A stretch of DNA of 64,000 bases from Casimicrobiaceae bacterium (GTDB lineage Bacteria > Pseudomonadota > Gammaproteobacteria > Burkholderiales > Casimicrobiaceae): positions 686 to 64,685 of the forward strand of contig JBGAMF010000007.1 in NCBI GenBank assembly GCA_044223185.1. The letters are read 5' to 3'. The position numbers were made by a program, and so were the translations under genes. Below the pieces are notes generated by a model. The model did no database searches. It worked only from the letters and a program-made list of their open reading frames with translations, and was not told the origin of the DNA. This document shows, in pieces, positions 44,201 through 59,170 of this stretch (positions are counted from its first letter, which is position 1; the number at the start of each line of letters is the position of its first letter).

Positions 44201-44298
44201 GGCGGGCAGGTCACGAGGCAAAAGGCCATTCTAACCCAGCGATTTCGCGGCCCTGCCCCGCCCTGCAGCGGATCGCCCGCCGCGCCCGCGGCGCACGC

Positions 44299-44751
44299 CT
44301 ACCCGCTGCCGCCCGCGCGCCGCAGGATGGCGAGCGTGGCGGCGTCCGGAACCCCGTCGAAGAACCGGGCGAGCGCCGCGTGGAACACCGAGCCCTCGCC
44401 CGCGACCTGCGCGAAGAGCGTCACGCACGAGTGGAACTTCATCGCGTCGACGCCGCCGAGGATCGACGCCGCGCTGCGGCCCGCGTGGCCGTTCATCGCG
44501 GCGACGCACTCGCGCAGTCGCGCGCCCAGCACCGGGTGGTCGAGGTAGGCCTTCGCCTCGGGCAGCCCGGAGAGCGCGTAGCGCACCGCCATGCCGCTGG
44601 AGCCAAGCCCGCGGAGCTGCGGCAGGACGTACCAGCTCCAGTGCGTGACCTTCCGCCCGGCGCGCAACTCGGCCAGCGCGTCGGCGTAGTTGACCGCCTG
44701 CGCCCGCACGAAGCGGTCGAGGTCGAAGGGGTCGGCGGCGTGCCGGGGCAT
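44299..44751 (-). CDS. DUF1810 family protein
   Basis: DPFDLDRFV.AQ, GRK..HW.WYV.PQL.GLG.S, EA.AYL.HPVLG.RL. Confidence 0.88.
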   Translation of the reverse strand: MPRHAADPFDLDRFVRAQAVNYADALAELRAGRKVTHWSWYVLPQLRGLGSSGMAVRYALSGLPEAKAYLDHPVLGARLRECVAAMNGHAGRSAASILGGVDAMKFHSCVTLFAQVAGEGSVFHAALARFFDGVPDAATLAILRRAGGSG

Positions 44752-44779
44752 CGCGGCAACGGCCGCACGCGGCGTCGCG

Positions 44780-45775
44780 TCAGGCGATCACCGTGTCCGC
44801 GCGCGCCAGCAGGGCTTGCGGAACGGTGACGCCGAGCGCCTTCGCCGTCCGGAGGTTGACGACCAGGTCGAACTTCGTCGGCTGCTCGAGCGGGAGGTCG
44901 CCCGGACGCGCGCCGCGCAGGATGCGGTCGACGTACCGCGCGTGCTGCCGCTCCAGCGCGGGCCAGTCGGGTCCGTACGACAGCAATCCCCCCGCCTCGG
45001 CGTATTCGCGCAGCGTGAACGCGCCCGGCAGGCGGTGCTCGAGCGCGATCGCGGCGATCCGGCTGCGGTTCCGGAACGTGAGGAAGTGCGGCTCCAGCAC
45101 GAACGCCTGCACGTGCGCGCGCGCCATCGCCGGCAGCGCCGCATCCACTTCGTCCGGGCTCGCGTAGTAGAAGAACTCGAGCGCAACGCCGACCGCGCGC
45201 GCGGAGGCGCGCAGACGCCCCTCGTACTTCTCCCGCTGGCCGGGATCGGCGCGCGCGTTGGCAAGCGCGCCGAAGCGTGTTGCCGCCGGCAGGGTCTCCC
45301 TGAGGTAGGCGAGGCGCTTCGCGTCGGTCTCGCCCAGCATCCGCGACACGCCGGTGACGTTGCCGCCCGGCTTCGCGAAGCTCGCGGCGAAGCCCTCCTC
45401 CACCGGATCGACGCCGCTGAACACCATCACGATCGGAACGGCCGAGGTCGCCTGCATCGCGGCAAGCGTGTCCGATCCGCCGAAGGTGGCGATGACGTCC
45501 ACGTTGGCGCGCACGAGCTCGCGCGCCAGTGCGGGCACGAGATCCGCCTTGCCGTCCGCCGCGCGCCGCTCGAAGACCACGTTCTGCCCGTCGACCCAGC
45601 CGAGGTCGCGCAGGGCGAGCACCCAGTTCGACTGCCGGAACTCGGCGTCCGTCCGCATCCCCCCACTGGAGAGCAGGCCCACCCTGCGCACGTTCGCGGC
45701 CGGTTGCGCGCCGGCGGCCGGCACCCACGCGCCGAAGCCCAACGCGGCGCCGGCGACGAACTTGCGGCGGTCCAT
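44780..45775 (-). CDS. Orphan ABC substrate-binding protein (COG2984-like), copy 1
   Basis: MDRRKF leader; LRDLGWVDGQN, PGGNVTG, GGLLSYGPD, PGDLPLEQPTKFDLVVNL.TA. Confidence 0.88.
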   Translation of the reverse strand: MDRRKFVAGAALGFGAWVPAAGAQPAANVRRVGLLSSGGMRTDAEFRQSNWVLALRDLGWVDGQNVVFERRAADGKADLVPALARELVRANVDVIATFGGSDTLAAMQATSAVPIVMVFSGVDPVEEGFAASFAKPGGNVTGVSRMLGETDAKRLAYLRETLPAATRFGALANARADPGQREKYEGRLRASARAVGVALEFFYYASPDEVDAALPAMARAHVQAFVLEPHFLTFRNRSRIAAIALEHRLPGAFTLREYAEAGGLLSYGPDWPALERQHARYVDRILRGARPGDLPLEQPTKFDLVVNLRTAKALGVTVPQALLARADTVIA

Positions 45776-45917
45776 CACCGAGCGGCCCGGTCCACCCGGT
45801 GCGGCCACGACGGCGCGGCCACGGTTCCGCAATCGCACGCCAACCTCGAGCTCACCCCGCCTCCCCGGCCGAAATCCGGAATCGCCCGGGCCACGCTACG
45901 CCGACGCGATCCGGTGG

Positions 45918-47261
45918 TCAATCGTCAGCGCCGCCGGGCCCGCGACGACCCGGAGCATCCCGATCGTAGGCGAGGTTGCCGCCCACGTACGTCGCCCGGA
46001 TCGCGCGATCGCCGGCCAGCGCCATCTGCACGGCCAGCGCCTCGTCGACGTCGTCGACGTCGCGCATGCGGAAGTCGATCAGCGGCGTCGAGCGGAGGTC
46101 GAGCACCGCGAGGTCCGCGTCCATGCCGGGCGCGACGCTGCCGATGCGGTCGTCGACGTCGAGCGCGCGGGCGGCGCCGCGCGTGGCGAGGTAGAGCGCG
46201 CCCGCCGGCGACAGCGGCGCGCCGGCCATCTGCGCCACCTCGCACGCGGCCTGCATCGTCCGCAGCATCGAGAGGCTGGTCCCGCCGCCGACGTCGGTCG
46301 CGAGCCCGACGCGCACCGGCCGTCGAGGGTCGGTGGCGGTCGCCAGCGGGAACAGGCCGCTGCCGAGGAAGTTGTTCGACGTCGGGCAGTGCGCGAGCGC
46401 AGTCCCGGCCGCGTGCAGCGCGCGAAAGTCCGCCTCGGCGAGGTGCACGCCGTGGCCGTAGATCGTGCGCGGTCCGGTCAGGCCGTACTTCGCGTAGACG
46501 TCGAGGTACGACGCCGCGTCGGGAAAGAGCTCGGCGACGCGCGCGATCTCCGCCCGGTTCTCCGCAAGGTGCGACTGCACGTAGGCGTCGGGGTGCTCGC
46601 GCTTCAGCGCGCCCGCCGCCTCCAGCTGCGCCGGGCTCGACGTCACCGCGAAGCGCGGCGTGATCGCGTACGCGAGCCGTCCCCGGCCGTGCCAGCGCGC
46701 GATCAGCCGCTTCGACTCGTCGTAGCCGCGCTGCGCCGTGTCGAGCAAAGCGGCCGGCGCGTTGCGGTCCATCAGCACCTTGCCGGCGACCATGCGCAGG
46801 CCGAGCGCGTCGGCCTCCTCGAACAGCACGTCGACGGACGCCGCGTGCACGGTGGCGAACACCGCCGCCGTCGTGATGCCGTGGCGCAGGCTCTCGCGCA
46901 GGTAGACGCGCGCGACGGCGCGCGCGTAGGCGGCGTCGGCGAACCGCGCCTCGGCGGGAAAGGTGTACGTCGCGAGCCAGTCGAGGAGCGGCTTGCCGCC
47001 GGCGCCGATGATCGGCAACTGCGGGTAGTGGACGTGCGCGTCCACGAAGCCCGCCGTGATCAGCGCGTTCGCGTAGGCGGTCACCGGCACGCCGGCGGCG
47101 AGCCGCCGCGCCACGTCCGTCGCGGGGCCGCAGTCGCGCACGCGGCCGTCCTCGACCACGACGATGGCGTCCGGCTCGTAGCGGCGGGTAGCCGCGATCC
47201 CGTCGACGAACGGGTCGCCGGCGAAGGTGACGAGCGCGCCGCGCAGCGCGAAGGCGGTCAT
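45918..47261 (-). CDS. guaD: Guanine deaminase
   Basis: GFVDAHVHYPQ, YAITPRFA, QSHLAEN, HCPTSN.FLGSG, VGLATDVGGG. Confidence 0.92.
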   Translation of the reverse strand: MTAFALRGALVTFAGDPFVDGIAATRRYEPDAIVVVEDGRVRDCGPATDVARRLAAGVPVTAYANALITAGFVDAHVHYPQLPIIGAGGKPLLDWLATYTFPAEARFADAAYARAVARVYLRESLRHGITTAAVFATVHAASVDVLFEEADALGLRMVAGKVLMDRNAPAALLDTAQRGYDESKRLIARWHGRGRLAYAITPRFAVTSSPAQLEAAGALKREHPDAYVQSHLAENRAEIARVAELFPDAASYLDVYAKYGLTGPRTIYGHGVHLAEADFRALHAAGTALAHCPTSNNFLGSGLFPLATATDPRRPVRVGLATDVGGGTSLSMLRTMQAACEVAQMAGAPLSPAGALYLATRGAARALDVDDRIGSVAPGMDADLAVLDLRSTPLIDFRMRDVDDVDEALAVQMALAGDRAIRATYVGGNLAYDRDAPGRRGPGGADD

Positions 47262-47289
47262 CGCGTCGGCGGCCGCAGGCGGCCGGACG

Positions 47290-47697
47290 TCACGGCCCCA
47301 TTTCCGGCGGCCACTGCGCGTACTGCGGCAGCGCGTCCGTGATCTCGTGCCACGGGGCCTTCGATCCCACGAAGATGTGCTCGCGCGGTCGCACGCCCGG
47401 ATCGCCGTCGAGGGTACCCGCGGCCACCTCGCCGACGACCCCATCGTGCGTGCTGACGAGCGGCGATCCGCAGTTCCTGCAGAAGCACCGCTGCCTGCCG
47501 GGCGAGGATTCGTACCCCTGGACGAACTCCGCTCCGGACGTCCAGCGGAACTGGTCGGGGTCGAGGATCCCCCACGTCGCGAACGCCGCGCCGTGGGACT
47601 TCCGGCACTGCGAGCAGTGGCAATTGCCCAGGAACCGGAGCGACCCTGCGACTTCGTACCGCACGGATCCGCACAGGCAACTTCCGCTCAGTGCCAT
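47290..47697 (-). CDS. GFA family Zn-binding protein
   Basis: GSCLCG.VRY, CHCSQCRK, FC..CGS. Confidence 0.9.
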   Translation of the reverse strand: MALSGSCLCGSVRYEVAGSLRFLGNCHCSQCRKSHGAAFATWGILDPDQFRWTSGAEFVQGYESSPGRQRCFCRNCGSPLVSTHDGVVGEVAAGTLDGDPGVRPREHIFVGSKAPWHEITDALPQYAQWPPEMGP

Positions 47698-47791
47698 CGG
47701 GCCTCCCTCTGGGCGATCACGACGCGTGTGGGCACGCGTCCCGGGCGGCGCGTGCCCGCGGCCGACCCGCGTTCGGGCGCGGTGCCGGAGT

Positions 47792-48130
47792 TCATCGGAC
47801 CGGCCCCGTCCTGCCGCCACCCGGCGCGTCGGAGCTTGCCGAGCCCGCCCACGACGCCTTGCCCGTGAACCGGTGCACGAGCACGGGCTCCTTCGCCACG
47901 GTGCCCGCGTAGCCGACCTTGAGCGGGAACGCCCAGTAGTCGCCCTGCAGCGTCGGCTCGGCGACCGCGGCCTCCATCCGGAGTTCGGTGGCGACGAAGC
48001 GCCGCGCCACGACGGCCGCCTCGGCCTTGCCGAGGCCGCCGGCCTTCGGCGCGTCCGCGGCGATCGCCCGCGCACCCGGCCCGAGGGCCGCGCACGAAAC
48101 GAGCAGGCGGATGAAGGTGCGTCGACGCAT
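47792..48130 (-). CDS. Hypothetical exported protein
   Basis: MRRRTF Tat-like leader; short; family not recognised. Confidence 0.5.
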   Translation of the reverse strand: MRRRTFIRLLVSCAALGPGARAIAADAPKAGGLGKAEAAVVARRFVATELRMEAAVAEPTLQGDYWAFPLKVGYAGTVAKEPVLVHRFTGKASWAGSASSDAPGGGRTGPVR

Positions 48131-48209
48131 CGGTGGCGGGCTCCGGCGCCATGCTACCCGGGATGCCCCGGCATCGCCCAGGGCGAAGCGCCGGCGGAGC
48201 GGCGACGCG

Positions 48210-48641
48210 CTACGTCGCGCCCGGCGGCGGCTTCACCGGCACCGGCTGCCGGTCGCTGCGCACGAGCGCCGGATCGAGGCAGGCCCAGCCGGGCGCCATC
48301 GACGTCCAGATGTTCGCGGCCGGCTTGACCGAAGAGGGGTCGTCGAGCGTGCCCACGCGCACGACCGTGACGCCCGGGTAGCCGGACGACTCGGCGAACA
48401 GGTGGCATCCGCACTCCGGGCAGAAGCGGCGGCTGACGCGGTTGCCGCTCTCGGCGGTGCGGACGTACTCGCGGGTCGCACCGGTGACCGCGAGCGCCGG
48501 CGTGGGAAAGAGCGCGTTGACGAGCCCGTTGCCCGCGATGTGCTGGCAGTCGCGGCACCAGCAGATCCTTGCGCCGACGGGCTCCGCGGTGAGCCGGTAG
48601 CGTACGTGCCCGCAAAGGCATCCGCCGGTTCGTTCGGTCAT
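48210..48641 (-). CDS. GFA family Zn-binding protein
   Basis: GGCLCG.VRY, CWCRDCQ, RRFCPECG. Confidence 0.9.
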   Translation of the reverse strand: MTERTGGCLCGHVRYRLTAEPVGARICWCRDCQHIAGNGLVNALFPTPALAVTGATREYVRTAESGNRVSRRFCPECGCHLFAESSGYPGVTVVRVGTLDDPSSVKPAANIWTSMAPGWACLDPALVRSDRQPVPVKPPPGAT

Positions 48642-48755
48642 CGGGTCATCCTCGCGCGTGGAAGGTGGTGGGAAAGGCGGGAGCGCCGTGGACGGCGCAG
48701 GGCAACGCGATCGAACGGCGGACGCCGGGCGCGCCGACGCGGCGACGGGCGGGCG

Positions 48756-49277
48756 TCATTGCGGGGCCTTGCGGCGGGTGTACCTGCCGTCGAACGCAAC
48801 GGTCCACTCGCCCTTGTCGTTCGTGCTCTCCCACAGCTGGCGCACCGAGCCGTCCGCATCGGGAGTCCAGGTGATGCGGTGACGCGTGCGGCTTCCGTCG
48901 GCGCCGCGGACCTCGCCCTCCAGCACCATCCGGTTCGCGCGGAACGCGCCTTCGAGCACGAGCAGCAGGCCGCCGCTGTCGACCCACGTCTGGTGCCAGA
49001 CCTGGCGGCCCGCGTCGTAGACGTTGAGGCTCTCGCCCCGGTAGCCGCGCTGGGTCTCGTACCGTTCGTGGACGACGCAGCCGTCGTATTCGCTGGCGAT
49101 GCGGTTGATGCCCGCCAGCCGACCGGCCGGGCCGCGCACCTCCCACTCGCCGAGCCAGAAGTCGAACTGCCGGTGATCGGCGGTCGCGCAGGGGGTCGGC
49201 CGGGGCTGCGCGAAGCAGGCCGCTGCCGCAACCAGCAGCACGACACCCAGCGAGCGAGCGACGCGGGCAACCATCAT
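48756..49277 (-). CDS. Secreted DUF1579-like protein
   Basis: Signal peptide; QFDFWLGEW.V, W.QTWVD..G, W..AFDG.Y.R. Confidence 0.75.
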   Translation of the reverse strand: MMVARVARSLGVVLLVAAAACFAQPRPTPCATADHRQFDFWLGEWEVRGPAGRLAGINRIASEYDGCVVHERYETQRGYRGESLNVYDAGRQVWHQTWVDSGGLLLVLEGAFRANRMVLEGEVRGADGSRTRHRITWTPDADGSVRQLWESTNDKGEWTVAFDGRYTRRKAPQ

Positions 49278-49457
49278 TCGACCGACTCCTGTGGCACGGC
49301 ATCGGGAACCGCAGCCAGCGCGGGCCGGCAGTGCGCGACGGCGCACGGCGGCGGCTCGCCATCCATGCTACTACCGTCTCCGGCCAGGCGGCCCGGCGCG
49401 GACGGCCAAGATAGTTCGCCGTGCGGCGGCTCGTTCCCTGCGGCCGGCCGTGTTCGG

Positions 49458-49847
49458 TCAGGACATGGCGTCGCAGTCACGCGGCACGTTCTGGGCGATG
49501 CGCCACAGGACACCGGAGGGATCGAAGAGGACGAAGTCACGCATGCGCCAGGGCTGAAGCTCGACCGGGCCGACCTCGACGCCGTACCTGGCGGCAATAC
49601 CGGCGTCCGTGATGGCCGTGTGCCAGGCGTCCACGTCCTCGACCAGCAGGTGCATCATGAAATTCCCGGCCAGCGCCTCGGTGAAGTAGTCCTGCAGCAG
49701 GAAGCTCGCGTCCCCGTGATGGAAGTAGGCAACGCCGTCGTCATCCGACGCCATCGTGAAGCCGATGTCCCGGTAGAAGCGCTTCGACAGCGCGAAATCC
49801 TTCGCGGGCACGAAGGCCTTGATCTCGACGACGCGCAGGTCAGGCAC
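49458..49847 (-). CDS. VOC/glyoxalase family protein
   Basis: AFVPAKDF.LSKRFY, QPW.MRDF.L.DPSGVLW. Confidence 0.85.
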   Translation of the reverse strand: MPDLRVVEIKAFVPAKDFALSKRFYRDIGFTMASDDDGVAYFHHGDASFLLQDYFTEALAGNFMMHLLVEDVDAWHTAITDAGIAARYGVEVGPVELQPWRMRDFVLFDPSGVLWRIAQNVPRDCDAMS

Positions 49848-49921
49848 GGGGGTCCTCTCGGTGATGCCCGACGGCCGGCGCGCCACCGCGGCGGCGCTCC
49901 GTTCGAGCAGGGTCCGGCGCG

Positions 49922-50746
49922 TCACTTTGCGCCATTGCCGTTCGCTTCGGCGGGCAGCGCCGCGATGGAGCGAAGGACCGCCCGCACGATGGCCTGCCGC
50001 TTGTCGAGGTCGCCGGTCCTGTTCGGCGTATCGATGTTGAGCGCAAAGAAGACCGGCCCGGCAGGCCATTCGACCCAGCCGACCCACCAGCCGACCTTGC
50101 CGTCCCACCCGGTCTTGGCGCGCAGTATCCAGTCGAACTCCGCCTCGTTGATCATGAGGTCCTTGACCAGCCTCTGGTGCTCGACGCGAAACGGCAGCGC
50201 GTTCCGGTAGAGCTTGCGCAGGAACGCGACCTGTTCCTGCGCCGAGATCGCGAGGTTGCCGTCGACCCAGTAGTCGCCGGCCCGCGCCGTCGGATCCGCG
50301 TTGCCGTAGTCGGCCTCGGCGAGGTACTTCCTCGCCCGCGGCTCCCCGATCCGCTTGGCGAGGATCTGGTACACCCAGAGTGCCGACGTGCGCATCGCGG
50401 ATCGGAGGTCCTGATCCTGGTTGTGGCCCGGCCAGCGGCGCTTCACCCCGTCCCATGGAAAGACCTGGAACTCGTCGCGCACGGCGCCCGCTTCCAGCGC
50501 GAACAGCGTGTGGGGGACCTTGAACGTCGACGCCGGCGAGTACCGAGTCCCGGCGCGATGCGCGTCGTAGACGAGATGCGCCCGGCGACGCGCGCGCTCG
50601 TCGACCACGACGATCGTGCCGGTGGCGCCGGCAGCGTCGAAGTGCGTCTTCCAGTCGGGGCGCTCGGTCTGCGCCTCCCCTGCGGCACGGGCGGCCGGGA
50701 ACGAGAACAGCACGGCGGCGGCCAGGGCGACGCAGCGGATGGTCAT
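49922..50746 (-). CDS. blaOXA: Class D (OXA) beta-lactamase, OXA-2-like group
   Basis: Signal peptide; SPASTFK, S-A-L at the SxV position, YGN, KTG; long stretches match my recollection of OXA-2. Confidence 0.93.
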   Translation of the reverse strand: MTIRCVALAAAVLFSFPAARAAGEAQTERPDWKTHFDAAGATGTIVVVDERARRRAHLVYDAHRAGTRYSPASTFKVPHTLFALEAGAVRDEFQVFPWDGVKRRWPGHNQDQDLRSAMRTSALWVYQILAKRIGEPRARKYLAEADYGNADPTARAGDYWVDGNLAISAQEQVAFLRKLYRNALPFRVEHQRLVKDLMINEAEFDWILRAKTGWDGKVGWWVGWVEWPAGPVFFALNIDTPNRTGDLDKRQAIVRAVLRSIAALPAEANGNGAK

Positions 50747-50939
50747 CAGCCGTTGGCTCGACGCCCGGGCACGAGTCGACGGGCGCGCAGCGGCAAGGCT
50801 GCCCGGCCGCTTGCCCGGCGGGCCAAGCGACACCGGCGGGCGCCGCGCGCGGCCGACAATCGCCAGCGGCGGTTCGGCAGGTGGAAGCCCGGCATCCGCC
50901 GCGTGGGTGGCCGGGTTTGCCGAAAGCGCCATGCGTCGG

Positions 50940-51623
50940 TCAGAACGCCTTGGGGTCGATGCCGACCACCGGGTCCCTGGACTCCAGTGCCGGTGAATCG
51001 ACCGCCTTCACGACATGGTCGTCCTCGACGTACCCGGAGATCCTGATCGGCTGCGACCGCCCGCCGATCGAGGGGCGCCGGATCGGCAGGTACCGGATCT
51101 CGTAGGTCCCGGCAGGCAGGTCACGGAACGCGAACACGCTTCGTTCCTGCACGAACGCGTGGCGCAGACCGGGACAAGACTGCTTGCCGGCTTCGCAGAG
51201 CTTCACGTAGATCCCGTGGGAACTTGCCCTCACCACGATTACACCATGACCACCCTGCGCCGCCTGCCGCATGTCGAGGTAACCGGTGCTCGCGGGCCAC
51301 GACTTTCCGACGGGAGGCGCAAGAGGCGCGATGCTGGCGTCTCTCGTGGAGGTCGAACGATAGGACTTGAAGGCGTTCGACGGCTCAGCGGGAGCGAGGG
51401 CCAGGTAAGCCGTCGCCAGGGCCGCGGCTACGACCGCAAGCACCACGAGAATCGTGGTCCCGGCGTTGCGCTTGCCGGTCTTGTCGCTCCGGCGGGCGGC
51501 GACCCACGAAATGACGGCGAGCAGCGCGAGCACGGGAGCCAGGACGAGCGCAAACTCGCCGGCCGCATGGACGACCAGCTTCGGGAATGCGCCGATCATG
51601 AAGCGCCAATCCGGGCCGACCAT
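50940..51623 (-). CDS. Hypothetical membrane-anchored protein
   Basis: AAAGGA SD before ATG 51623; two N-terminal TM helices; WP..TGY, YVKL, PAG.YEIRY soluble domain. Confidence 0.6.
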   Translation of the reverse strand: MVGPDWRFMIGAFPKLVVHAAGEFALVLAPVLALLAVISWVAARRSDKTGKRNAGTTILVVLAVVAAALATAYLALAPAEPSNAFKSYRSTSTRDASIAPLAPPVGKSWPASTGYLDMRQAAQGGHGVIVVRASSHGIYVKLCEAGKQSCPGLRHAFVQERSVFAFRDLPAGTYEIRYLPIRRPSIGGRSQPIRISGYVEDDHVVKAVDSPALESRDPVVGIDPKAF

Positions 51624-51903
51624 GTCCTTTTGCGCGTGCACGGGCCGCGCGACCAGCAGTGCAAGCGTCGACCATGCGGGCTCTCCCCGACGCCACGTCG
51701 CCGCGCGCTTGCCGCCCGAAACGATCGGCACACGGCCGACACCGAATCGGCGTCGACACCGACCGCAACTGGCCCGCCGCGCCCGTCGGACCAACGACGG
51801 CAGGCTCGATCCTTCGTGCAGAAGCCGTCGGTCGGCCTCGTGCCCTGCCGGATTTCGACCCGCTCCGATCACTGCAATTTCGCCATTGCAGACATGCGCG
51901 GCC

Positions 51904-52881
51904 CTACTGGATGACCCTGTCTGCACGCGCGAGGACGCCGGGCGGGATCGTCAGGCCGATCCTCCTGGCGGTGTTCAGATTGACGACCAACTCGAACTTC
52001 GCCGGCTGGAGGACCGGGAGATCGGCGGGCTTCGCGCCATTGAGTATTCTGGCCACGTAGAGGGCGGCCTGACGATCGCGGTCCGCGATGCTCTGGGTGT
52101 AGGCCAACAGGCCGCCAGCGTCCGCAAAGCCCTGCCCGGGGGAGGACGACGCGAGCCGATGCTGCATCGCCAGCTCGACGGCACGCTTGTGCGGAAGGCT
52201 CGGCTGGACGATGAGGGCGCTTGCTCGCGCCTTGCCTATGTCCTCGAAGGCGGCGTCCAGCGGCTCGCCGCCGCGCACCGAGAAGATGCGCAGCTCGATG
52301 CCCAGCGACCGGGCGGCGAACTGGTTCTGTTCCAGGAACGTCTTCGTGAAGGTGTCCGCCGCGTTCACGAGCACGGCGACGTGCCTCGCGGAGGGCACGA
52401 TCTGCCGGATCAATTCGAGGTTCTTGGCCGCAAGCTCCGCGGTTGCACTGGATATTCCCGTGACGTTGCCACCGGGCCGGGCGAGGCTGGCGACGAGCCC
52501 CGTTCCCACCGGATCGGCTGCCGCCGCCATGACGATCGGAATCGTCGTCGTGGCCCGTTTGGCCGCCAGGGCGGCCGGTGTCTGGAACGAAACGATGACG
52601 TCGACGTTCAGGCGCACGAGCTCGACGGCCAGCTCGGCCAGACGATCGTTGTTACCTTCAGCCCAGCGCGACTCGACAGCGAGGTTCGTGCCTTCGACAT
52701 AGCCATGGTCCCGCAGGTTCGCCACCAGGGCGGGGGCCCAGCTCGTGCCGCCGGCAACGAAGCCCGGCCCCAGCAGACCGATACGCGCGGGCTTCGCGGC
52801 AGGCGCCTGCGCCAGCACCGACAACGGCGCGGCGAAGGCGCCGGCACCCAGCGCGATGACCAGTTTGCGGCGATGGCTCAA
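51904..52881 (-). CDS. Orphan ABC substrate-binding protein (COG2984-like), copy 2
   Basis: GGAG SD and TTG start; LRDHGYVEGTNL, DPVGTGLVASLARPGGNVTG, PADLPV.QP.KFELVVNL. Confidence 0.88.
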   Translation of the reverse strand: MSHRRKLVIALGAGAFAAPLSVLAQAPAAKPARIGLLGPGFVAGGTSWAPALVANLRDHGYVEGTNLAVESRWAEGNNDRLAELAVELVRLNVDVIVSFQTPAALAAKRATTTIPIVMAAAADPVGTGLVASLARPGGNVTGISSATAELAAKNLELIRQIVPSARHVAVLVNAADTFTKTFLEQNQFAARSLGIELRIFSVRGGEPLDAAFEDIGKARASALIVQPSLPHKRAVELAMQHRLASSSPGQGFADAGGLLAYTQSIADRDRQAALYVARILNGAKPADLPVLQPAKFELVVNLNTARRIGLTIPPGVLARADRVIQ

Positions 52882-53086
52882 TTCGGCTCCTCGGAGGGCT
52901 GCCATTATGTCAAGTTGCGCCGAGGGCAGCATACGAAGGGCTCGCGGCCGGATGCGGGCGCCGATCGGCGATCGAATGCAAACCGGCATGCACTGCCGCG
53001 TGACCCCGGTCGCCGTACGGCAGGTTACGGCACGGCGCCGGCTCGTCATGGAACGACGAAACGGATGGCAATGCGGTGTTCGCGCG

Positions 53087-53176
53087 GCCTGACGGAATGG
53101 CTGACCGGCGGGCCGCGCCAGTGCGGACCAACGTCGAGCCGCATGCCGGCGCGTCCGCTCGAGTGCACGGGCGGGC
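53087..53176 (-). repeat. Degenerate attC (core GTCAGGC, inverse core eroded)
   Basis: GCCTGAC-ggaat-ggctgaccgg...ccgctcgagt-gcacg-GGCGGGC; arm layout like 63511-63591. Confidence 0.55.
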
Positions 53177-53213
53177 CGAAACGCATCGTCCGGCTCGACT
53201 CGATGCAGCACGC

Positions 53214-53316
53214 TCAGTCGGGAAACAGGACTTCGAAGAGCGCCCTGGCCTTTGGCGACAGGTTCCTGGGGTCCGGACGAAGCAGATCGTCGTCGGGCAC
53301 CAATCGGAACCCGGCG
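53214..53316 (-). pseudogene. 3' remnant of an unidentified gene (...AGFRLVPDDDLLRPDPRNLSPKARALFEVLFPD*)
   Basis: Protein-like C-terminus with no start, between the YciI stop and a degenerate attC. Confidence 0.35.
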
Positions 53317-53658
53317 TCAGGACTCCGGATCGTACTGGAACACGCGCAGCTCCTGGTCGCAGCGGCAGGCCTTCGCGATGCGAGCGGCCCATTCGACTGC
53401 CTCCTTGCGCGAGGGAAGTTCGAGCACGGCGAATCCGCCGTCGAGAGGAGCGGCCCACGGATATCCGCCCTCGGCGACTGCGCCATCACCCGAGACGAGT
53501 GCGGGACGAACGGTCTCGTCGATGCCGCCTGCGAAGACATAGACGCCGGCGGCCTTCGCCTCGCCGATCACCGCGTGCGCGTCGCGGCCCACCGTCTCCC
53601 ACTCGCCGTCGGGCACCGCCATCGCCGCGCTTGGAAACGAGATCAGGTACTTGGCCAT
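53317..53658 (-). CDS. YciI/DGPF family protein
   Basis: AAGGAG SD; MAKYLI, AGVYVFAGG, GGFAVLELPSR.EA.EWAA. Confidence 0.85.
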   Translation of the reverse strand: MAKYLISFPSAAMAVPDGEWETVGRDAHAVIGEAKAAGVYVFAGGIDETVRPALVSGDGAVAEGGYPWAAPLDGGFAVLELPSRKEAVEWAARIAKACRCDQELRVFQYDPES

Positions 53659-53693
53659 GCGATTCTCCTTCGGCGAGTAAAGTCGCGGGCCTC

Positions 53694-53795
53694 GGCGAAC
53701 GGTTCCTGCCGGCCGGCGAGCCGGGGAAGGCGGCGGCCCGCCGCGAGCGAAAACCGCGGCTGCAGTGCAGCGTCCGCTTGCGTGGATCGTCAGAC
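53694..53795 (-). repeat. Degenerate attC (inverse core GTCTGAC holding the upstream TGA; core GTTCGCC)
   Basis: Minus strand GTCTGAC-gatcc-acgcaagcggacg...gccggccggcaggaacc-GTTCGCC. Confidence 0.45.
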
Positions 53796-54287
53796 CGTCG
53801 TCCGGCCACGAACCGCCGCCTCGATCACCGCGACGTCGATCTTCTTCATCGTCATCATTGCATCGAAGGCACGCTTGGCTGCGGAGCGATCCGGACCGGT
53901 ATACGCTTTGGTCAACGCGATTGGCGTGATCTGCCAGGAGATGCCCCACTTGTCTTTGCACCAGCCGCATTCGCTCTCCTGGCCGCCGTTGGAGACGATC
54001 GCGTTCCAGTAGCGATCCGTTTCGGCCTGATCCTCGGTGGCGACCTGGAACGAGAACGCTTCGCTGTGCTTGAACGCAGGCCCGCCGTTCAGCCCGAGAC
54101 AGCGAACACCCATCACGGTGAACTCTACCGTCAGCACGTCCCCCAGCCTGCCCGACGGAAAGTCGCCGGGGGCGCGATGAACCGCGCCGAGGGACGAATC
54201 GGGAAAGGTGTCGGCGTAGAACTGCGCAGCTTCCTCGGCATCGCGTTCGTACCAGAGGCAAATCGTATTCTTTGCAATCCTCGTCAT
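53790..54287 (-). CDS. PhnB-like VOC family protein (3-demethylubiquinone-9 3-methyltransferase domain)
   Basis: ICLWY...AEEAA.FY, GLNGGP.F..SEAFSF, CGWCKDKWGISWQI. Confidence 0.9.
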   Translation of the reverse strand: MTRIAKNTICLWYERDAEEAAQFYADTFPDSSLGAVHRAPGDFPSGRLGDVLTVEFTVMGVRCLGLNGGPAFKHSEAFSFQVATEDQAETDRYWNAIVSNGGQESECGWCKDKWGISWQITPIALTKAYTGPDRSAAKRAFDAMMTMKKIDVAVIEAAVRGRTTV

Positions 54288-54485
54288 GCCGCTCTCCCAT
54301 CGAGATCGGAGCGAGCGCCTGCGCCGCTCCCGGATGAAGTCGCCGTGGGTTCCCAGGACCTGGCTGGCAGGTCAGGAGTCCGGGCTTCCCGGAGGTCCGA
54401 CATCCTGCCAGCCAGGTTGGGCATGTTCGGTCGCCGACATTCTCTCCTGACACGCCGGACATCTCGGTAGCGCCACCGTCCTTCC

Positions 54486-54564
54486 GCCAAACGCCCAAAC
54501 TCAGCCGTGGCGCCAGCTTCGCGCAAGCAGATCTGGTGAGGTCGGCTGGAGTGCGTCGTTGGGC
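54486..54564 (-). repeat. attC site
   Basis: GCCAAAC...actcagccg / cggctgGagt (extrahelical G)...GTTGGGC; 79 bp. Confidence 0.8.
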
Positions 54565-54604
54565 GGCATCCGTGAAGAGTCCGCCATCCTCTGAACGAGC
54601 GCGA

Positions 54605-55066
54605 CTACGCCTCGTTGTAGGCTCTCTCGAGCTCGGCCACGTCGAGCTTCACCATCGTCATCATGGCTTCCATCACGGCCTTCACCTTCCTGGGGTTCCT
54701 ATCACGGATCAGCTCGGTGAATCGTCGGGGGACGATTTGCCAGGAAAGACCGAACGGGTCCTTGATCCAACCGCATTGCGTGGGCTTCGCTCCTGCCTTC
54801 ACGAGCTTTTCCCAGTACTCATCCACTTCATCCTGATCCGCGCAGTCCACGTAGAGCGAAACCCCCTCGGAGAAGCTGAAGTACGGACCTCCGTTGTAGC
54901 CCATGAAGCGTTGACCGCCGACGACGAACTCGGCGGAACTGACAGGACCGTCCCTGCCCGTGCGGGCGACGTTGCGTACTTCGGAGTCGGGAAACGTCGC
55001 GGTGTAGAACTCGATGGCCGCTTCGAGCTGGTCGTTGAACATGAGGAAGGGCGTCACCTTGTTCAT
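54605..55066 (-). CDS. PhnB-like VOC family protein
   Basis: KVTPFLMF, YNGGPYF, CGWIKDPFGLSWQIVP; start re-called to ATG 55066. Confidence 0.9.
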   Translation of the reverse strand: MNKVTPFLMFNDQLEAAIEFYTATFPDSEVRNVARTGRDGPVSSAEFVVGGQRFMGYNGGPYFSFSEGVSLYVDCADQDEVDEYWEKLVKAGAKPTQCGWIKDPFGLSWQIVPRRFTELIRDRNPRKVKAVMEAMMTMVKLDVAELERAYNEA

Positions 55067-55102
55067 GGGAATGTCTTCTCCGTGAGTGCGATGCTCTTCT
55101 CC

Positions 55103-55159
55103 GCCCAACGTAGAGTTCGGCGGCGGCCGGCGGCCGTCCGTTGCAACGGCCTGTTGGGC
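55103..55159 (-). repeat. attC site (short, 57 bp)
   Basis: GCCCAAC-gtaga-gttcggcgg...ccgttGcaac-ggcct-GTTGGGC. Confidence 0.9.
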
Positions 55160-55232
55160 AGCTTCTTCACTCGTGCCTTGCCACGGCCGGGTGGTGTCCC
55201 GATTGCGGTGGAAACGGCGGCGCGGCCTTCGG

Positions 55233-55400
55233 TCATTGAATGACGTGATCCGCCCGCAGCAGCACCGACTGCGGGAGGGTGAGGCCCAGGGCCTTCGCGG
55301 TCTTCATGTTGATCACGAGTTCGAATTCGGTCGGCAGCTCGGCGGGCTTTGCCCCCTTGAGGATCTTGTCCACATAGGTGGCGTCCCGCCGGAAGAGTTC
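55233..55400 (-). pseudogene. 3' fragment of COG2984-like substrate-binding protein (copy 3)
   Basis: [55 protein letters not shown]; no 5' part; lacks the usual VEQP. Confidence 0.85.
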
Positions 55401-55559
55401 GACAAAGCTCGGTGCCGGTGACCGTCCCCGCCGACTCCTGGGCCAGGATGCCGACGATCTGCTCATCTGAAAACTTGCTCTTGCGCATGGGCTCCTCCGG
55501 TGGTCAATATACCCGGCAGAGCGTCACCTACCTTGGCCTGGAATTCGGGCGGAAAGTCA
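55400..55559 (-). mobile_element. Truncated IS3-family element (left end plus 30 codons of OrfA)
   Basis: TG-initiated end at 55559; [37 protein letters not shown] then abrupt junction. Confidence 0.8.
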
Positions 55560-55720
55560 AACCCGATCCGCTGCCGCCAGCCACCAGGCGGAAGAGCGGG
55601 ACCGGTGCCGCCTCCTCGGTGCGCAGCGAGCCTTGCATCCAGGAAGACCCCGGCCATTCGCGCAATGCCGCCGGCCAGCGGTGCCGGGAACAGCGCGGCG
55701 ACAATGCGCGATCGCATCAC

Positions 55721-55789
55721 GCCCACCGTTCGAGGAAACGCGGGACCAGCATTGGGACGCCTGGCCCGCCGCTGGGCCTCGTGTTGGCC
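55721..55789 (-). repeat. Possible heavily degenerate attC
   Basis: Minus strand GGCCAAC 14 nt after a stop, cagcggcgggcc arm, GTGGGC end; poor pairing. Confidence 0.3.
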
Positions 55790-55802
55790 GAGGGGTAGGG
55801 AT

Positions 55803-56315
55803 TCACTGCCTGCCAACAGCAGCAGGCTGCCTTTTGGCCACTGCTTGATCCGAGCGCAGGAAGAAGTCCGCAGGCGAGCGGAGCCATTCCCTCTTCTGGT
55901 TATCCCAGTGCGCGCGTTGCCAGCCATTGGGCTCTACGAGGGTCGAGGCCCAGGACGGGACCTCTTCTCCCGGTGCTTGTCCAAGCCCCGCCAAAAAGCA
56001 AACTTCCTCGCCGGTCCGGGTCCTGACGCGTCTTGTTCCAAAGGTGAAAGGCGACTCCAGACCGCTGAAGTCGCGCGCGGTTGTTCCACCGTAGACCTTG
56101 CGGCTTCCCGCAAGGCAGACCACATGGCTGCGTAGACAGGCCAGGAAAGCCTTACACAAGCCCTTCATGGGCTCGTCACTGCAGCCTTTGTTTCCCGTTA
56201 GATTGGGGATGACCAAACCACCGGCCGTCTCCGCAGCCTCGCAGGTGTTCGCATCGGCGGGACTGCAGGTCAGCGCGACAGCGGTGAACGCTGCGATGGC
56301 AATTGACAGGTTCAT
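55803..56315 (-). CDS. Hypothetical secreted Cys-containing protein (cassette)
   Basis: Starts 7 nt after a core site; signal peptide; several Cys; no family recognised. Confidence 0.6.
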   Translation of the reverse strand: MNLSIAIAAFTAVALTCSPADANTCEAAETAGGLVIPNLTGNKGCSDEPMKGLCKAFLACLRSHVVCLAGSRKVYGGTTARDFSGLESPFTFGTRRVRTRTGEEVCFLAGLGQAPGEEVPSWASTLVEPNGWQRAHWDNQKREWLRSPADFFLRSDQAVAKRQPAAVGRQ

Positions 56316-56321
56316 TGCGAG

Positions 56322-56405
56322 GCCTGACGGACAAAGCCAATCGGCCGCGAGCGGACGGCGCGCCAGCGCCGCCGGCGGGCGGTCCGGTTGAGCGAGGGTT
56401 CAGGC
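56322..56405 (-). repeat. attC-like site with GAC/GTC variant R boxes
   Basis: GCCTGAC-ggaca-aagccaatcgg-ccgc...gcggT-ccggttGagc-gagg-GTTCAGGC; both extrahelical bases present. Confidence 0.7.
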
Positions 56406-56427
56406 CGCAAGCAATGCCGCGAGGCGC

Positions 56428-56880
56428 TCATCGGATGAGGCGTGCACGCGCTTGAAGGACTTGCGGAATCGTGAGCCCGAGCGACTTCGCGGTCGCCATG
56501 TTTATGGAGAGCTCGAACCCGGTGGCCTGCTGGATCGGCAGATCACCGGGTTCGCCCCCTTCAGCAACTTGTCCACCAACGCGCCAGCGCGTCGATACCC
56601 TTCGAGCCGGTACGGGCCGTAGCCGATCACGCCGCCGGCGTCGGCGTACTCGTTGATCGCGGACGCCGAAACCAATCGATGCTTCAATGTCGACTCGGCG
56701 ACGGCTCGGGCGTTTACGGCGAACATGGTATCGCCTTGCACGAGCGCGGTATCGCACCGCGCTCTCTCAGCCTTGTCAAGGAAACCGGCGAGCTCAGCCG
56801 GCGTCCGCGCCTCGAACATCGACAGACGATTCTTGAACCACGCCGCCGTAGACTGCATCGCCGGCGTGCTTGTCGTGTGA
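56428..56880 (-). pseudogene. 3' half of COG2984-like substrate-binding protein (copy 4), frameshifted near 56549
   Basis: EYADAGGVIGYGP...VDKLLKGANP / GDLPIQQATGFELSINMATAKSLG in two frames; no start. Confidence 0.8.
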
Positions 56881-56910
56881 TCCGCAGGATTGGCAAGGTA
56901 CGCTACGCGC

Positions 56911-56917
56911 GTTAGGC
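56911..56917 (-). repeat. Isolated inverse core (GCCTAAC) of a truncated attC
   Basis: GTTAGGC on + strand, 7 nt beyond the dehydrogenase stop; no matching arm. Confidence 0.5.
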
Positions 56918-56924
56918 GTCAACA

Positions 56925-57872
56925 TCAATGTTGCTCGACGAAGCGCGGAACACTGTCACCGCTCAGATGTTTCAACAGTACATCGGCGACAGCGTCGGCA
57001 AAGTCCTCGTACTTCTTGTCGGTGGGCCAACCCAAATGCGGCGTGAGAATGACGTTTGGCAACGTCAACAAAGGATGACCGCGCGGTAGCGGCTCGCAGT
57101 CGAATACATCGAGACCGGCGCCTGCAATTCGACCGTCCGCCAGCACCGAAACCAGCGCAGCTTCATCAACGATCGGCCCACGAGCGGTGTTGATCAAACA
57201 GGCGGTAGGTTTCATGAGCCGAAGCCGCCGAGCGTCAAGCAACCCTCGCGTCTCGGGTGCGAGCGTCGCGTGCACTGAAACGACATCCGATTCCCGCATC
57301 AGATGATCCAGATCGCACCACTCTGCACCCAGCGACGCCGCGGCGCCATCGTCGCGACGACGGCTCCAGGCGAGGACTCGCATGTCGAAGGCTCGTGCGA
57401 TCTTCGCGACATGCATACCAACGTGCCCGAGTCCGATGACGCCAAGCGTCTTGCCATTGAGCTCGTGACCCAACGGGGCAGGCCAATGTCCGGACTTCAC
57501 GGCAGCGTCAGCCGCCGGTATGTGTCGCAGCAACGCAATGGTGAGGCCGATGGCCAATTCCGCCGCACCGGTGGAGAAGCCACCGCTCGCCTTTGCCACA
57601 ATCACCCCGCGCTCCCGGGCGGCCGCCAAATCGACGTGGTAAGCGTGGTTCCCGGTCTGCGCGAGAATCCGGAGATCGGGCAATCGCTCGAAGAGCGCCC
57701 GAGTGAATTTTGTGCGTTCGCGGTTCGCTACGAGGGCATCGAATCCACGCAATGCCGCTGCATCGCCAAATGGACCGACGAATATCCGAACCTCGGCTCG
57801 CTCCCTCAGCCGTCGGACGGCCTCGGTACGCTCATACGCCTGGTGGATATCATCAAGAATGGCGACATGCAC
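56925..57872 (-). CDS. D-2-hydroxyacid dehydrogenase family protein (cassette)
   Basis: GGAGG SD and GTG; VAILDD, GVIGLGHVG, LINTARG, LDVF..EP, TPHLG. Confidence 0.92.
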   Translation of the reverse strand: MHVAILDDIHQAYERTEAVRRLRERAEVRIFVGPFGDAAALRGFDALVANRERTKFTRALFERLPDLRILAQTGNHAYHVDLAAARERGVIVAKASGGFSTGAAELAIGLTIALLRHIPAADAAVKSGHWPAPLGHELNGKTLGVIGLGHVGMHVAKIARAFDMRVLAWSRRRDDGAAASLGAEWCDLDHLMRESDVVSVHATLAPETRGLLDARRLRLMKPTACLINTARGPIVDEAALVSVLADGRIAGAGLDVFDCEPLPRGHPLLTLPNVILTPHLGWPTDKKYEDFADAVADVLLKHLSGDSVPRFVEQH

Positions 57873-57889
57873 CTGCTGCCTCCATTGAC

Positions 57890-57979
57890 GCCTGACGAAA
57901 AAGGCGAGCGGCGCGCCGCCGCGGCGCCCGCCAAGTAGAAGCTGCGTACCGACGCGTCCGCTCGACCGCAGGATCAGGC
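57890..57979 (-). repeat. attC-like site with GAC/GTC variant R boxes
   Basis: GCCTGAC-gaaaa-aggcgagcgg-cgcg...cgcgT-ccgctcgAcc-gcagg-ATCAGGC; holds the hicB TGA. Confidence 0.75.
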
Positions 57980-58185
57980 CGGTACGTCGACGCACCGAAC
58001 CGAGCCAGTTGGCGCGGGAATGGGGGTACCATCTTCGCGCATGCCCTCAAGGTGAACTCGATAGCGTCGCGGATCTCCCGCTCGACTTCCTCGACGGTCG
58101 CGCCTGTAGCAACGCAGCCGGGAAGATCAGGAACGTCTGCCGAGTAGTTGGGCCCGGCGCTTTCGATCACGATCGCGTAGCGCAT
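57974..58185 (-). pseudogene. hicB: HicB antitoxin, frameshifted near 58053
   Basis: MRYAIVIE...YSADVPDLPGCVATG.T..E....I..AIEF / HLEGMREDGTPIP.P in two frames. Confidence 0.88.
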
Positions 58186-58195
58186 CTGGTTCCCC

Positions 58196-58383
58196 TCACC
58201 TCGTCGCGCCCGCCTGCTCTCGAATGCTATCGAGTGTCCCAGGAGCGCGTTCGTCGCTTGGCTTGCCAGGAACAGTGACTCGCCGGGTTTCGGCGGATGC
58301 TTGAACCGACGATGACTTCCGCGAGTGGCGACCAGGAACCACCTCTCGTCAGCAAGCAGCGGGAGCATCTCGCCCACCTTAAC
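58196..58383 (-). pseudogene. hicA: HicA mRNA interferase, frameshifted near 58281, start codon degraded
   Basis: W.LVATRGSHR.FKHP.KPG / RVTVPGKPSDE.APGTL.SI in two frames. Confidence 0.88.
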
Positions 58384-58426
58384 GCGCGGGATTATGCGCT
58401 CTCGGCCACGAGCTTCTCAACCTGAG

Positions 58427-58445
58427 GCCAAACGGGATTCAGGCC
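58427..58445 (-). repeat. Collapsed attC (both R boxes, central stem deleted)
   Basis: Minus strand GCCTGAA-tccc-GTTTGGC containing the SMI1/KNR4 stop. Confidence 0.5.
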
Positions 58446-59059: not shown

Positions 59060-59092
59060 TGATCTTCCGAGGCGACGAACGGTGATTCGGAG

Positions 59093-59170
59093 GCCTAACG
59101 TTCGAGTTCACTCGCAGCCGGAAGCAGGCGAAGCCTGCTGGAGGCTGTCGGGTGCAACGACGGGTTAGCC
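59093..59170 (-). repeat. attC site
   Basis: GCCTAAC-gttcg-agttcactcg-cagcc...ggctgT-cgggtGcaac-gacgg-GTTAGCC; 78 bp. Confidence 0.95.

Follow-up and report, generated by a model that had tools for sequence, protein, structure and literature searches.

We analyzed a 64,000-nucleotide stretch of DNA from a Casimicrobiaceae bacterium (the window; positions 686 to 64685 of contig C53 in a 192-contig, 4.18-Mb, 72% GC assembly). Its right-hand part carries the cassette array of a chromosomal integron, and the array is joined on the left by a run of host-like genes that lack the attC recombination sites of cassettes. This genome is labeled G000 and is lineage A of the comparisons below, in which lineages B to E are relatives with an integron at the same site, other G labels are genomes of the genus, L labels are contigs or loci of relatives, and C labels are contigs of G000. 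From hisD (42234) rightward to the end of the window, all genes are on the minus strand, as are all sites given below for this interval. An initial annotation had described a right-to-left decay of cassettes across this region and had read all of it, up to hisG, as a single array whose age increases leftward. The decay gradient was confirmed, and the interpretation was partly supported.

The left end of the region is anchored by the core gene hisG (43547-44221; Pfam HisG, 177 bits), whose product was 72 to 97% identical at the amino acid level in relatives and whose upstream TAGAAT promoter box (approximately 44225 to 44240) was kept in all of them. The motif GGGTTAGAATGG upstream of hisG was considered as an attC R' box and rejected because it is this conserved promoter box. 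Next come a DUF1810 gene (44299-44751; Pfam, 179 bits), which lies outside the array, and SBP1 (44780-45838, with a true start near 45775; Pfam, 117 bits), an orphan PF04392 gene for a substrate-binding protein. The DUF1810 gene was found in lineages C and D, whereas neither lineage E nor the genus representatives had it at this locus, and SBP1 shared 81% amino acid identity with its counterpart in sister lineage C, with a ratio of nonsynonymous to synonymous substitution rates (dN/dS) of 0.32. These are followed by a gene encoding a 453-amino-acid amidohydrolase (45918-47279, with the frame open to 47444; Pfam Amidohydro_1, 191 bits).

To the right of the amidohydrolase gene lie the genes that we refer to as the frozen block. 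Its first member, GFAb (47290-47700; Pfam GFA, 89 bits), is the second GFA-family gene of the region and was present in G000 and lineage B and absent from lineages C and D. Over 47290 to 47815, GFAb forms a clean single-gene insert that replaces the last 10 or so codons of the o47792 orthologue, with neither attC nor repeats at either junction. The adjoining o47792 (47792-48130; 112 amino acids) was common to lineages A to D, and its coding status is uncertain because its dN/dS compared to lineage C was about 1. Four candidate fossil cassettes follow: a GFA gene (48210-48641; Pfam, 112 bits; 94% amino acid identity to lineage C and 87% to lineage D; dN/dS, 0.22), a DUF1579-like gene (48756-49277; weak Pfam match; 95% identity to C and 84% to D), a VOC/glyoxalase gene (49458-49847; Pfam Glyoxalase, 36 bits), and a gene predicted to encode an OXA-2-like class D beta-lactamase (49922-50746; Pfam Transpeptidase PF00905, 146 bits). 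The predicted beta-lactamase was 68% identical to a Pseudomonas aeruginosa OXA-2 record, many homologues at 65 to 75% identity were named OXA-2 by their sources, and hundreds of environmental homologues were found at 65 to 90% identity, those at 70 to 90% in metagenomes. The block ends with o50940 (50940-51926; 328 amino acids), replaced in sister C by a MAPEG-SMR-74aa set of genes, and SBP2 (51904-52881; Pfam, 148 bits), a second PF04392 binding protein gene with 93% amino acid identity to lineage C and a dN/dS of 0.17. The initial annotation had described the genes from 44.3 to 53 kb as small, co-oriented members of typical cassette families; the orientation and the families held, but the interval also contains the 453-amino-acid amidohydrolase, two binding proteins of approximately 330 amino acids, and the 328-amino-acid product of o50940.

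From 53 to 58.4 kb, cassettes and gene remnants alternate. The genes o53214 and PhnB1 (3-dmu-9_3-mt family; 53214-54287) have no attC between them and were common with lineage B up to 54047, and PhnB2 forms a cassette (54483-55162) flanked by two short attC sites. Beyond it is a PF04392 pseudogene fragment (55233-55466) truncated by a 30-codon relic of the N terminus of an IS3 OrfA (55393-55488). The o55803 cassette (55718-56408) lies between attC sites 55718-55803 and 56319-56408. An intact 2-hydroxyacid dehydrogenase gene (56925-57995; Pfam) is followed by further PF04392 pseudogene fragments (56443-56912) within one cassette-sized unit (56443-57830), and the 3' end of a HicA/HicB-like frame (57853-58377; Pfam) is overlapped by the attC at 57887-57982. 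These fragments agree with the pseudogenes that had been placed here; an insertion sequence scar, also proposed, was supported weakly by the IS3 relic, whose HTH_Tnp_1 match (16.6 bits) was under the cut-off, and 56925 to 57995 is not a scar, since it holds the intact dehydrogenase gene. The low-GC, fluid part of the array runs from 58439 to 64000 and on to the contig end with intact attC sites and contains o58439, BrnTA, a YafQ-like toxin with its helix-turn-helix (HTH) partner, two large genes, and a SnoaL gene. Within 12 kb, the PF04392 (ABC_sub_bind) family is represented four times by genes or fragments (44780-45838, 51904-52881, 55233-55466, and 56443-56912). The genome encodes approximately 27 paralogues of this family. 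Some of them form a tandem run on contig C181, which was considered as part of the array and rejected, as it gave zero attC matches.

The attC sites were located with two covariance models: R1, built from six sites of the window and contig end and used to collect sites from relatives, and R2, built from 107 sites in the arrays of five congeners, with zero sites of the window in its training set. Scanning the full 64 kb with R2 on both strands with filters off gave eleven matches, all on the minus strand, and the tRNA match was the sole match in an Rfam scan. The intact attC family, GGCCTAAC...GTTAGGCC, was seen at 59 to 64 kb (59090-59173, 59726-59818, 60417-60513, 63002-63076, and 63508-63594) and on to the contig end, and in this zone of the window R2 gave five scores, 70.3, 60.2, 71.5, 59.7, and 66.7 bits. 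Leftward of these sites, R2 scores were 48.3 bits for a variant site at 57887-57982, 37.5 bits for a second variant at 56319-56408, 30.6 bits for a badly broken site at 55718-55803, 35.9 and 33.9 bits for short sites with canonical cores at 55100-55162 and 54483-54567, and 25.9 bits for the last detectable relic, at 53084-53179, which marks the boundary between the frozen and fluid zones. The Spearman correlation between attC score and window position was 0.91 (P = 1e-4). The site at 58377-58445, upstream of the HicA/HicB-like frame, is collapsed, with zero model match and a hairpin z score of -1.6. The half site TCTAACGTTGGACTTCACCCGG (61606-61630) lies between the large cassette genes 60528-61580 and 61630-62976, which are fused through loss of half a site. 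Two solitary attC-like matches were found far from the integron, at C92:6866-6949 (R1, 50.1 bits) and C109:12938-13021 (R1, 35.4 bits).

Two approaches that do not use the models gave the same picture. In single-strand folding, intact sites had hairpin z scores of -3.0 and -4.3, degenerate sites ranged from -0.5 to -2.3, and the spacers at 44 to 51 kb ranged from -0.95 to +1.4. The search for complementary RYYYAAC/GTTRRRY core pairs returned positions 54486, 55103, 59093, 59729, 60420, and 63005 and one chance core match, which was the only one left of 54.4 kb. R2 scores, hairpins, and core pairs agree on the passage from intact sites at the right to degenerate and variant sites at 53 to 58.4 kb. 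Between 44 and 53 kb, where the initial annotation had noted no clear attC, the R2 scan with filters off on both strands gave at most about 16 bits, the same noise as in the 1- to 44-kb core. The genes from 47.3 to 53.08 kb have no attC of their own by R1, R2 with filters off, hairpin, or core-motif pair searches and are not cassettes now. A possible collapsed site at 44754-44785 did not survive scrutiny: it had zero model match and a z score of -0.94, its heptamers are not complementary, it was not conserved in sister lineages, and its motif is a chance occurrence.

The variant sites that had been noticed share one change. The sites at 57887, 56319, and 53084 have an R' box of GTCAGGC instead of GTTAGGC, with R'' changed to match (GTC/GAC for GTT/AAC), and the R' of the lineage D orthologue of the 53084 site reads GTT. 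These GTC variants may have remained able to recombine for a while instead of being dead outright, because the homology of sister C stops exactly at the GTCAGGC R' box of the 53084 site and a deletion in lineage D, described below, is anchored at the orthologous R'.

Base composition changed along the same axis. GC content fell from 0.74 at 44 to 48.5 kb through 0.70, 0.68, and 0.63 to 0.52 to 0.60 at 58 to 64 kb. GC content at third codon positions (GC3) was 0.96 to 0.98 in the core his genes, 0.98 in DUF1810, 0.92 in SBP1, and 0.94 in the amidohydrolase gene. In the frozen block it was 0.88 in GFAb, 0.92 in o47792 and GFA, 0.86 in the DUF1579-like gene, about 0.88 to 0.91 in OXA, 0.78 in o50940, and 0.84 in SBP2, with the lineage-variable o50940 and GFAb dipping relative to their conserved neighbors. 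Farther right it was 0.76 in o53214, 0.78 in PhnB1 and PhnB2, 0.68 in o55803, 0.67 in the dehydrogenase gene, 0.68 in HicAB, 0.65 in o58439, and 0.56 to 0.79 in the cassettes beyond. The Spearman correlation of gene position with GC3 was -0.74 (P = 6e-5), and attC scores, hairpin z scores, and GC3 shift in step. The AT-richer genes at the right and the host-like GC-rich genes at the left that had been reported are therefore real, and gradients are present in both GC3 and attC score.

The integrase gene is on contig C164, which is not joined to C53 in the assembly. IntI (C164:453-1394) is full length without stops and matched TIGR02249 at 470 bits (cut-off, 265). The gene ends approximately 70 bp from the queF stop codon (queF, C164:1474-2307), and murA, bolA, and the ABC-2/mla genes follow convergently; mla-ABC2-bolA-murA-hisG is the betaproteobacterial gene order. 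A cassette fragment lies at the start of C164, IntI faces away from it, and a GTCTAAC motif occurs upstream of intI within C164:1-452. The two contigs together hold an integron-type IntI and a co-oriented attC cluster (five intact sites, six weaker ones, and more to the contig end). Orientation and flanks fit across the contig gap, and lineage E has the same order on one contig. Among the genome contigs, the best relative of IntI was 67% identical and none lay beside queF or murA, and a search of the window for intI remnants, as would be left by a second, dead integron near 53.3 kb, found none.

The hisG loci of 20 relatives were then used to delimit the insertion. The genus order is murA-queF-amidohydrolase-hisG, compact in G024, G013, G008, and G011, and in outgroup families murA is directly beside hisG. 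The amidohydrolase gene, whose product was 66 to 89% identical at the amino acid level in relatives, adjoins hisG in at least eight congeners (G024, G013, G016, G021, G008, G011, G018, and G002), at whose hisG loci neither attC nor IntI was detected, and in lineage E. Since intI abuts queF here and the congeners have this order, everything from about 47.29 kb rightward is one insertion between queF and the amidohydrolase gene; the conserved queF-amidohydrolase-hisG order likewise makes the amidohydrolase gene ancestral core and the distal limit of the integron insertion. DUF1810 and SBP1 are on its hisG side and therefore belong to a separate, later insertion that is not contiguous with the array. 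The single array that had been proposed is thus supported for 47.3 to 58.4 kb, which shares the insertion of the integron, and not supported for 44.3 to 47.3 kb, where the amidohydrolase gene is syntenic core in at least eight congeners that lack the integron. All of 44.3 to 64 kb could be a single array only if the amidohydrolase gene were a very old, fixed cassette. All of these genes are co-oriented, the SBP1 family occurs in cassettes, and DUF1810 and SBP1 are accessory, being absent from lineage E and the genus representatives. Even so, this is highly improbable, given the position of the amidohydrolase gene between queF/murA and hisG in at least eight congeners and lineage E with no integron distal to it, the restriction of lineage E cassettes to the queF side, and a 44754-44785 motif that is neither conserved nor palindromic. 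The comparison of the region upstream of hisG accordingly placed the 47.3- to 53.1-kb block inside the integron insertion and set the amidohydrolase core and the DUF1810/SBP1 pair apart from it.

Contigs of lineages B (L150 and L151), C (L141 to L144, four independent assemblies), D (L156), and E (L155), found through OXA homologues and HisD, carry an integron at the same site as G000, and this insertion site therefore predates the split of lineages A to E. These are unverified metagenome contigs, of which those of B and C each recur in independent assemblies. Lineage C was collinear with 42000 to 53300 of the window at 90 to 94% nucleotide identity, with gene-sized differences only: GFAb is missing, VOC and the DUF1579-like gene are separated by an additional membrane gene (M217), o50940 is replaced by MAPEG-SMR-74aa, and a GNAT gene plus a 132-amino-acid gene lie between SBP2 and the 53084-type attC. 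Its homology to the window ends exactly at the R' box of that site and is followed by unrelated cassettes with attC scores of 45 to 54 bits. Sister C also has a 19.5-bit attC after MAPEG, distal to SBP2 and inside the block that is attC-less in G000. The orthologue of the 53084-type attC scored 31 to 32 bits in lineages B and C. Lineage B aligned to 54047-49889 and 49382-47077 of the window; it has GFAb, o50940, and M217, has precisely lost VOC, carries the BrnTA and RelE/HTH cassettes in another order, and lacks 54047 to 59742. As B lacks VOC and has M217, the genes originally ran OXA-VOC-M217-DUF1579, and M217 has since been lost from lineage A. In sister C, M217 lies between an ACGTAAC/GTTACGT pair; the idea that this pair is a split attC could not be substantiated.

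Lineage D (HisD, 92%) reads hisG-DUF1810-SBP1-amidohydrolase-o47792-GFA-DUF1579 and then has a 26-nucleotide tail of VOC, joined within approximately 4 nucleotides to the R' GTT of the 53084-type attC and followed by cassettes with attC scores of 18 to 55 bits. What it has in common with the window rightward of the amidohydrolase gene is limited to 47.8 to 49.3 kb, 53140 to 53304, and this tail. The tail shows that SBP2 to VOC was present in the common ancestor and was deleted in D, and this deletion is an event anchored at an attC core; the use of lineage D as proof that OXA-VOC-SBP2 is younger than DUF1579-GFA was rejected for the same reason. Lineage E (L155, GCA_016716425.1; HisD, 92%) has murA-queF-[intI remnant]-cassettes-amidohydrolase-hisG on one 206-kb contig, which supports the C53-to-C164 order. 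Its intI remnant is the last 15 codons (87% identity), its cassettes comprise three small genes and DMP19 with attC scores of 34 and 22 bits, found only on the queF side of the amidohydrolase gene, and it lacks DUF1810, SBP1, and all of the frozen genes. At L155 3420-4413, approximately 1 kb of noncoding-looking sequence, maybe a transposase remnant on the opposite strand, separates the intI stump from the attC cassettes. Lineage E is a cluster of attC sites lacking integrase (CALIN) caught with an integrase stump.

Sharing among the lineages decreased with distance from the amidohydrolase gene: o47792, GFA, and DUF1579 occur in A to D, VOC to SBP2 in A, B, and C (with the VOC tail in D), o53214 and its attC in A to D, PhnB1 in A and B, and PhnB2 to o58439 in A only, and the toxin-antitoxin cassettes are common to A and B and shuffled. 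Lineages B and C share 47.8 to 53.0 kb with G000 at 87 to 94% nucleotide identity, and homology ends or cassettes are reordered right of 53.3 kb (C) or 54.05 kb (B), with the breaks to C and D falling at or within the 53084-type site. The boundary between conserved and shuffled genes coincides with the last detectable attC, which is the expectation if attC loss freezes the array. All genes shared by A and C were intact and had equal GC3 in both, and dN/dS compared to lineage C was 0.17 to 0.26 for frozen genes other than o47792, a sign of purifying selection on the block, 0.04 to 0.20 for the his and amidohydrolase genes, and 0.26 to 0.32 for DUF1810 and SBP1. The proposed increase of age leftward holds only in coarse terms, with the exceptions that GFAb, the leftmost gene, and o50940 are lineage variable and lower in GC3 and that single genes (VOC and M217) were lost within the frozen block.

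Other arrays of the genus were examined for the same pattern. IntI was found in 33 of 61 genus genomes at other loci and was only about 60% identical to that of G000, and congener arrays run at 0.55 to 0.62 GC. In G005, G011, and G072, the sequences that flank intI correspond to the start of a G000 contig (C10:15-1118), on which there is no integron and the next 17 kb, at 0.71 to 0.77 GC, is without attC; G000 has no integron at the usual genus site and a different one at queF. In G051 and G044, the last attC is succeeded by 14 to 15 kb of small genes in one orientation, without attC even when filters were off, and GC3 in the G051 tail rises from 0.68 to 0.91. Sister C has the same GC3 ramp, and in G012 and G072 GC rises past the last detected attC, at the level of GC profiles only. 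The attC score fell with distance from intI in four further arrays (G051, G044, G072, and sister C), significantly in G072 only. Between murA and queF, G012 moreover carries a 12.6-kb cluster with neither attC nor intI (L016, C25, 3098-14685), made up of small co-oriented genes (two VOC, GNAT, peptidase S51, DUF3224, FAD oxidase, and DUF1579-like) with GC3 of 0.66 to 0.86; this cluster may be a fully fossilized array at a neighboring site.

Homologues of the frozen genes were then sought in cassettes elsewhere, a check suggested in the initial annotation, and attC-flanked ones were found for OXA, DUF1579-like, GFA, and PF04392 genes. The OXA homologue P0010 (70% identity, L147) is flanked by two attC sites (45.8 and 28.1 bits) and has a GC3 of 0.65, and since OXA was absent from 100 genus genomes it was acquired. 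A DUF1579-like homologue (56% identity) is an attC-flanked cassette in G051, as are GFA homologues (31 to 39%) in G011, G044, and G072 and PF04392 genes in L141, G011, and G072. Integrons of other taxa likewise hold relatives of OXA, GFA, and PhnB in cassette position.

Taken together, these results indicate that 47.29 to 64 kb, the rest of C53, and C164 are probably one sedentary chromosomal integron whose tail consists of aged former cassettes moved along as on a conveyor. Several findings weigh against this. No trace of attC was detected in G000 from 47.3 to 53.08 kb, where we infer a cassette origin rather than see it, and R1 and R2 are specific to one attC family, so foreign attC types could be missed, although the hairpin and core-motif scans concur with them. 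Within the genus, the nearest homologues of GFA (70%) and of the DUF1579-like gene (64%) have attC-less contexts; as to their orthology, the contexts of the congeneric loci are unrelated or the contigs too short. The insertion and deletion junctions of GFAb, M217, VOC, and o50940/MAPEG-SMR are attC-less, and therefore a process other than IntI also moves single genes. GFAb is the most distal insert and yet not the oldest, the GC3 gradient could partly be donor composition, and C53 and C164 are physically unjoined.

Some of these findings would also fit genes at 47.3 to 53 kb that were never cassettes and were instead gathered as accessory genes by illegitimate recombination or homologous recombination with related strains in a hotspot separating the array end from the core, the integron being a chance neighbor. 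In addition to the missing attC relic in G000, the attC-less GFAb, VOC, and M217 junctions, and the congeneric GFA and DUF1579 contexts, the murA-hisG interval is variable, as seen in the G012 cluster between murA and queF and in G001 and G009, which have inserts of 4.7 to 13 kb separating murA from the ABC-2 permease gene, and members of the same gene families can settle beyond the array, as SBP1 and DUF1810 did. This alternative is nonetheless unlikely, because sister C retains an attC relic inside the block, the lineage D deletion starts at an attC R' box, and OXA, DUF1579-like, GFA, and PF04392 homologues are genuine cassettes elsewhere. Strict co-orientation, cassette size, a smooth GC3 ramp contiguous with the array, and the presence of the same tail after the G051 and G044 arrays, whose loci are unrelated, point the same way. 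The cassette origin of the 47.3- to 53.1-kb genes is well supported, and these attC-less genes appear to have entered as cassettes.

The rise in GC3 would then reflect time spent in the host. Alternatively, it could be a donor signal, with genes from high-GC donors or cassettes formed out of host-like genes lying distally, genes from low-GC donors lying proximally, and no appreciable amelioration, which is not exclusive of a conveyor. Shared genes have the same GC3 in G000 and sister C and so changed little since the split, PF04392 is expanded in the host, and OXA homologues span GC3 values of 0.65 to 0.91 across hosts. Against this, the ramp climbs monotonically across approximately 25 genes in parallel with attC decay, and it is seen again in individual genes of G051 and sister C and, as GC profiles, in G012 and G072. 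Lineage-variable inserts also have lower GC3 than their older neighbors, and PF04392 cassettes flanked by attC have GC3 values of 0.68 to 0.79 versus 0.84 to 0.93 for attC-less ones. We consider the donor explanation doubtful.

For former cassettes on a conveyor, the following sequence of events is proposed. New cassettes would enter at attI beside intI, at the right, and push older ones toward the amidohydrolase gene; near intI, cassettes would be low in GC, have intact hairpins, and be shuffled between close lineages. The AT-rich cores of attC would erode in a 72% GC genome, in particular by GTT-to-GTC changes in R' with matching changes in R'', the hairpin would then be lost, and left of 53.08 kb attC would be gone. 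With attC lost, IntI can no longer excise the genes, and gene order therefore freezes. Useful genes (GFA, DUF1579-like, VOC, OXA, and PF04392) would be retained under purifying selection and drift toward the host, reaching GC3 values of 0.84 to 0.92, and useless ones would decay, as in the PF04392 fragments and the IS relic.

Much of this locus resembles known systems. Like the Vibrio superintegron and the ilvD-linked integrons of Xanthomonas, it is chromosomal, with an integron-type intI, a long co-oriented array of small promoterless genes, and related attC hairpins, and it has the toxin-antitoxin cassettes of sedentary chromosomal integrons (here BrnTA, HicAB, and RelE/YafQ-like with an HTH partner). 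Unlike those integrons, it lies at a queF/amidohydrolase site in the murA-hisG cluster, not at the usual genus site, and its end is not abrupt but a graded tail without attC. Degenerate integrons and stable arrays in Xanthomonas were reportedly discussed by Gillings and coworkers in 2005. Lawrence and Ochman are said to have described in 1997 how acquired genes come to match the host in composition the longer they reside there, with third codon positions changing fastest; in contrast to such general amelioration, the genes here would lie in rough order of arrival by the integron mechanism, which would give a spatial gradient. Fused gene cassettes arising through partial or total loss of attC have been described (Fonseca and Vicente, PMC4670013). 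As in those fusions, attC loss here welds and immobilizes neighbors (o53214 with PhnB1 and the dehydrogenase gene with a PF04392 fragment), but those were single events in short mobile class 1 arrays, whereas here at least eight successive genes are siteless, conserved across lineages, and host-like in composition. CALIN elements, attC clusters without integrase, were described by Cury et al. (2016, PMC4889954), who also mentioned "genetic degradation of integron cassettes." They are products of integron decay, and lineage E is a true CALIN at this site; a CALIN keeps attC and loses intI, whereas the tail here shows the converse, with intI kept and attC lost. IntI-mediated insertion of cassettes at nonatt sites, attG (Loot et al., bioRxiv 10.1101/2022.09.11.507474), is also a route by which cassettes become ordinary chromosomal genes and a candidate origin for SBP1-DUF1810 and GFAb, but attG insertions carry their own attC, and none was detectable beside SBP1, DUF1810, or GFAb. 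The underlying ideas of attC loss, cassette fusion, and amelioration are already known, and no description of a graded, attC-less, ameliorating tail was found in the literature searched.

Integrons are usually seen as reservoirs whose cassettes can always be remobilized, and recent work has presented chromosomal arrays as isolated from the rest of the genome. This locus is probably an ordered example of the opposite outcome, in which sites were lost and genes became frozen, selected, and host-like, and it is replicated in five same-locus lineages and at least two unrelated arrays of the genus. More broadly, the chromosomal integrons of this high-GC Burkholderiales group may act as one-way conveyors, in which GC-biased substitution erodes attC cores and genes pass to vertical inheritance, so that a measurable share of small core-like accessory genes, including the OXA-2-like gene, would be former cassettes and the tail a datable stratigraphic record; we regard this generalization as evenly balanced. 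The locus offers a route to recognize former cassettes that are invisible to attC-based tools such as IntegronFinder and a set of naturally graded sites for learning which attC changes put an end to recombination. It also suggests a plausible path by which environmental resistance genes, such as this relative of OXA-2, could come to stable residence in the chromosome.

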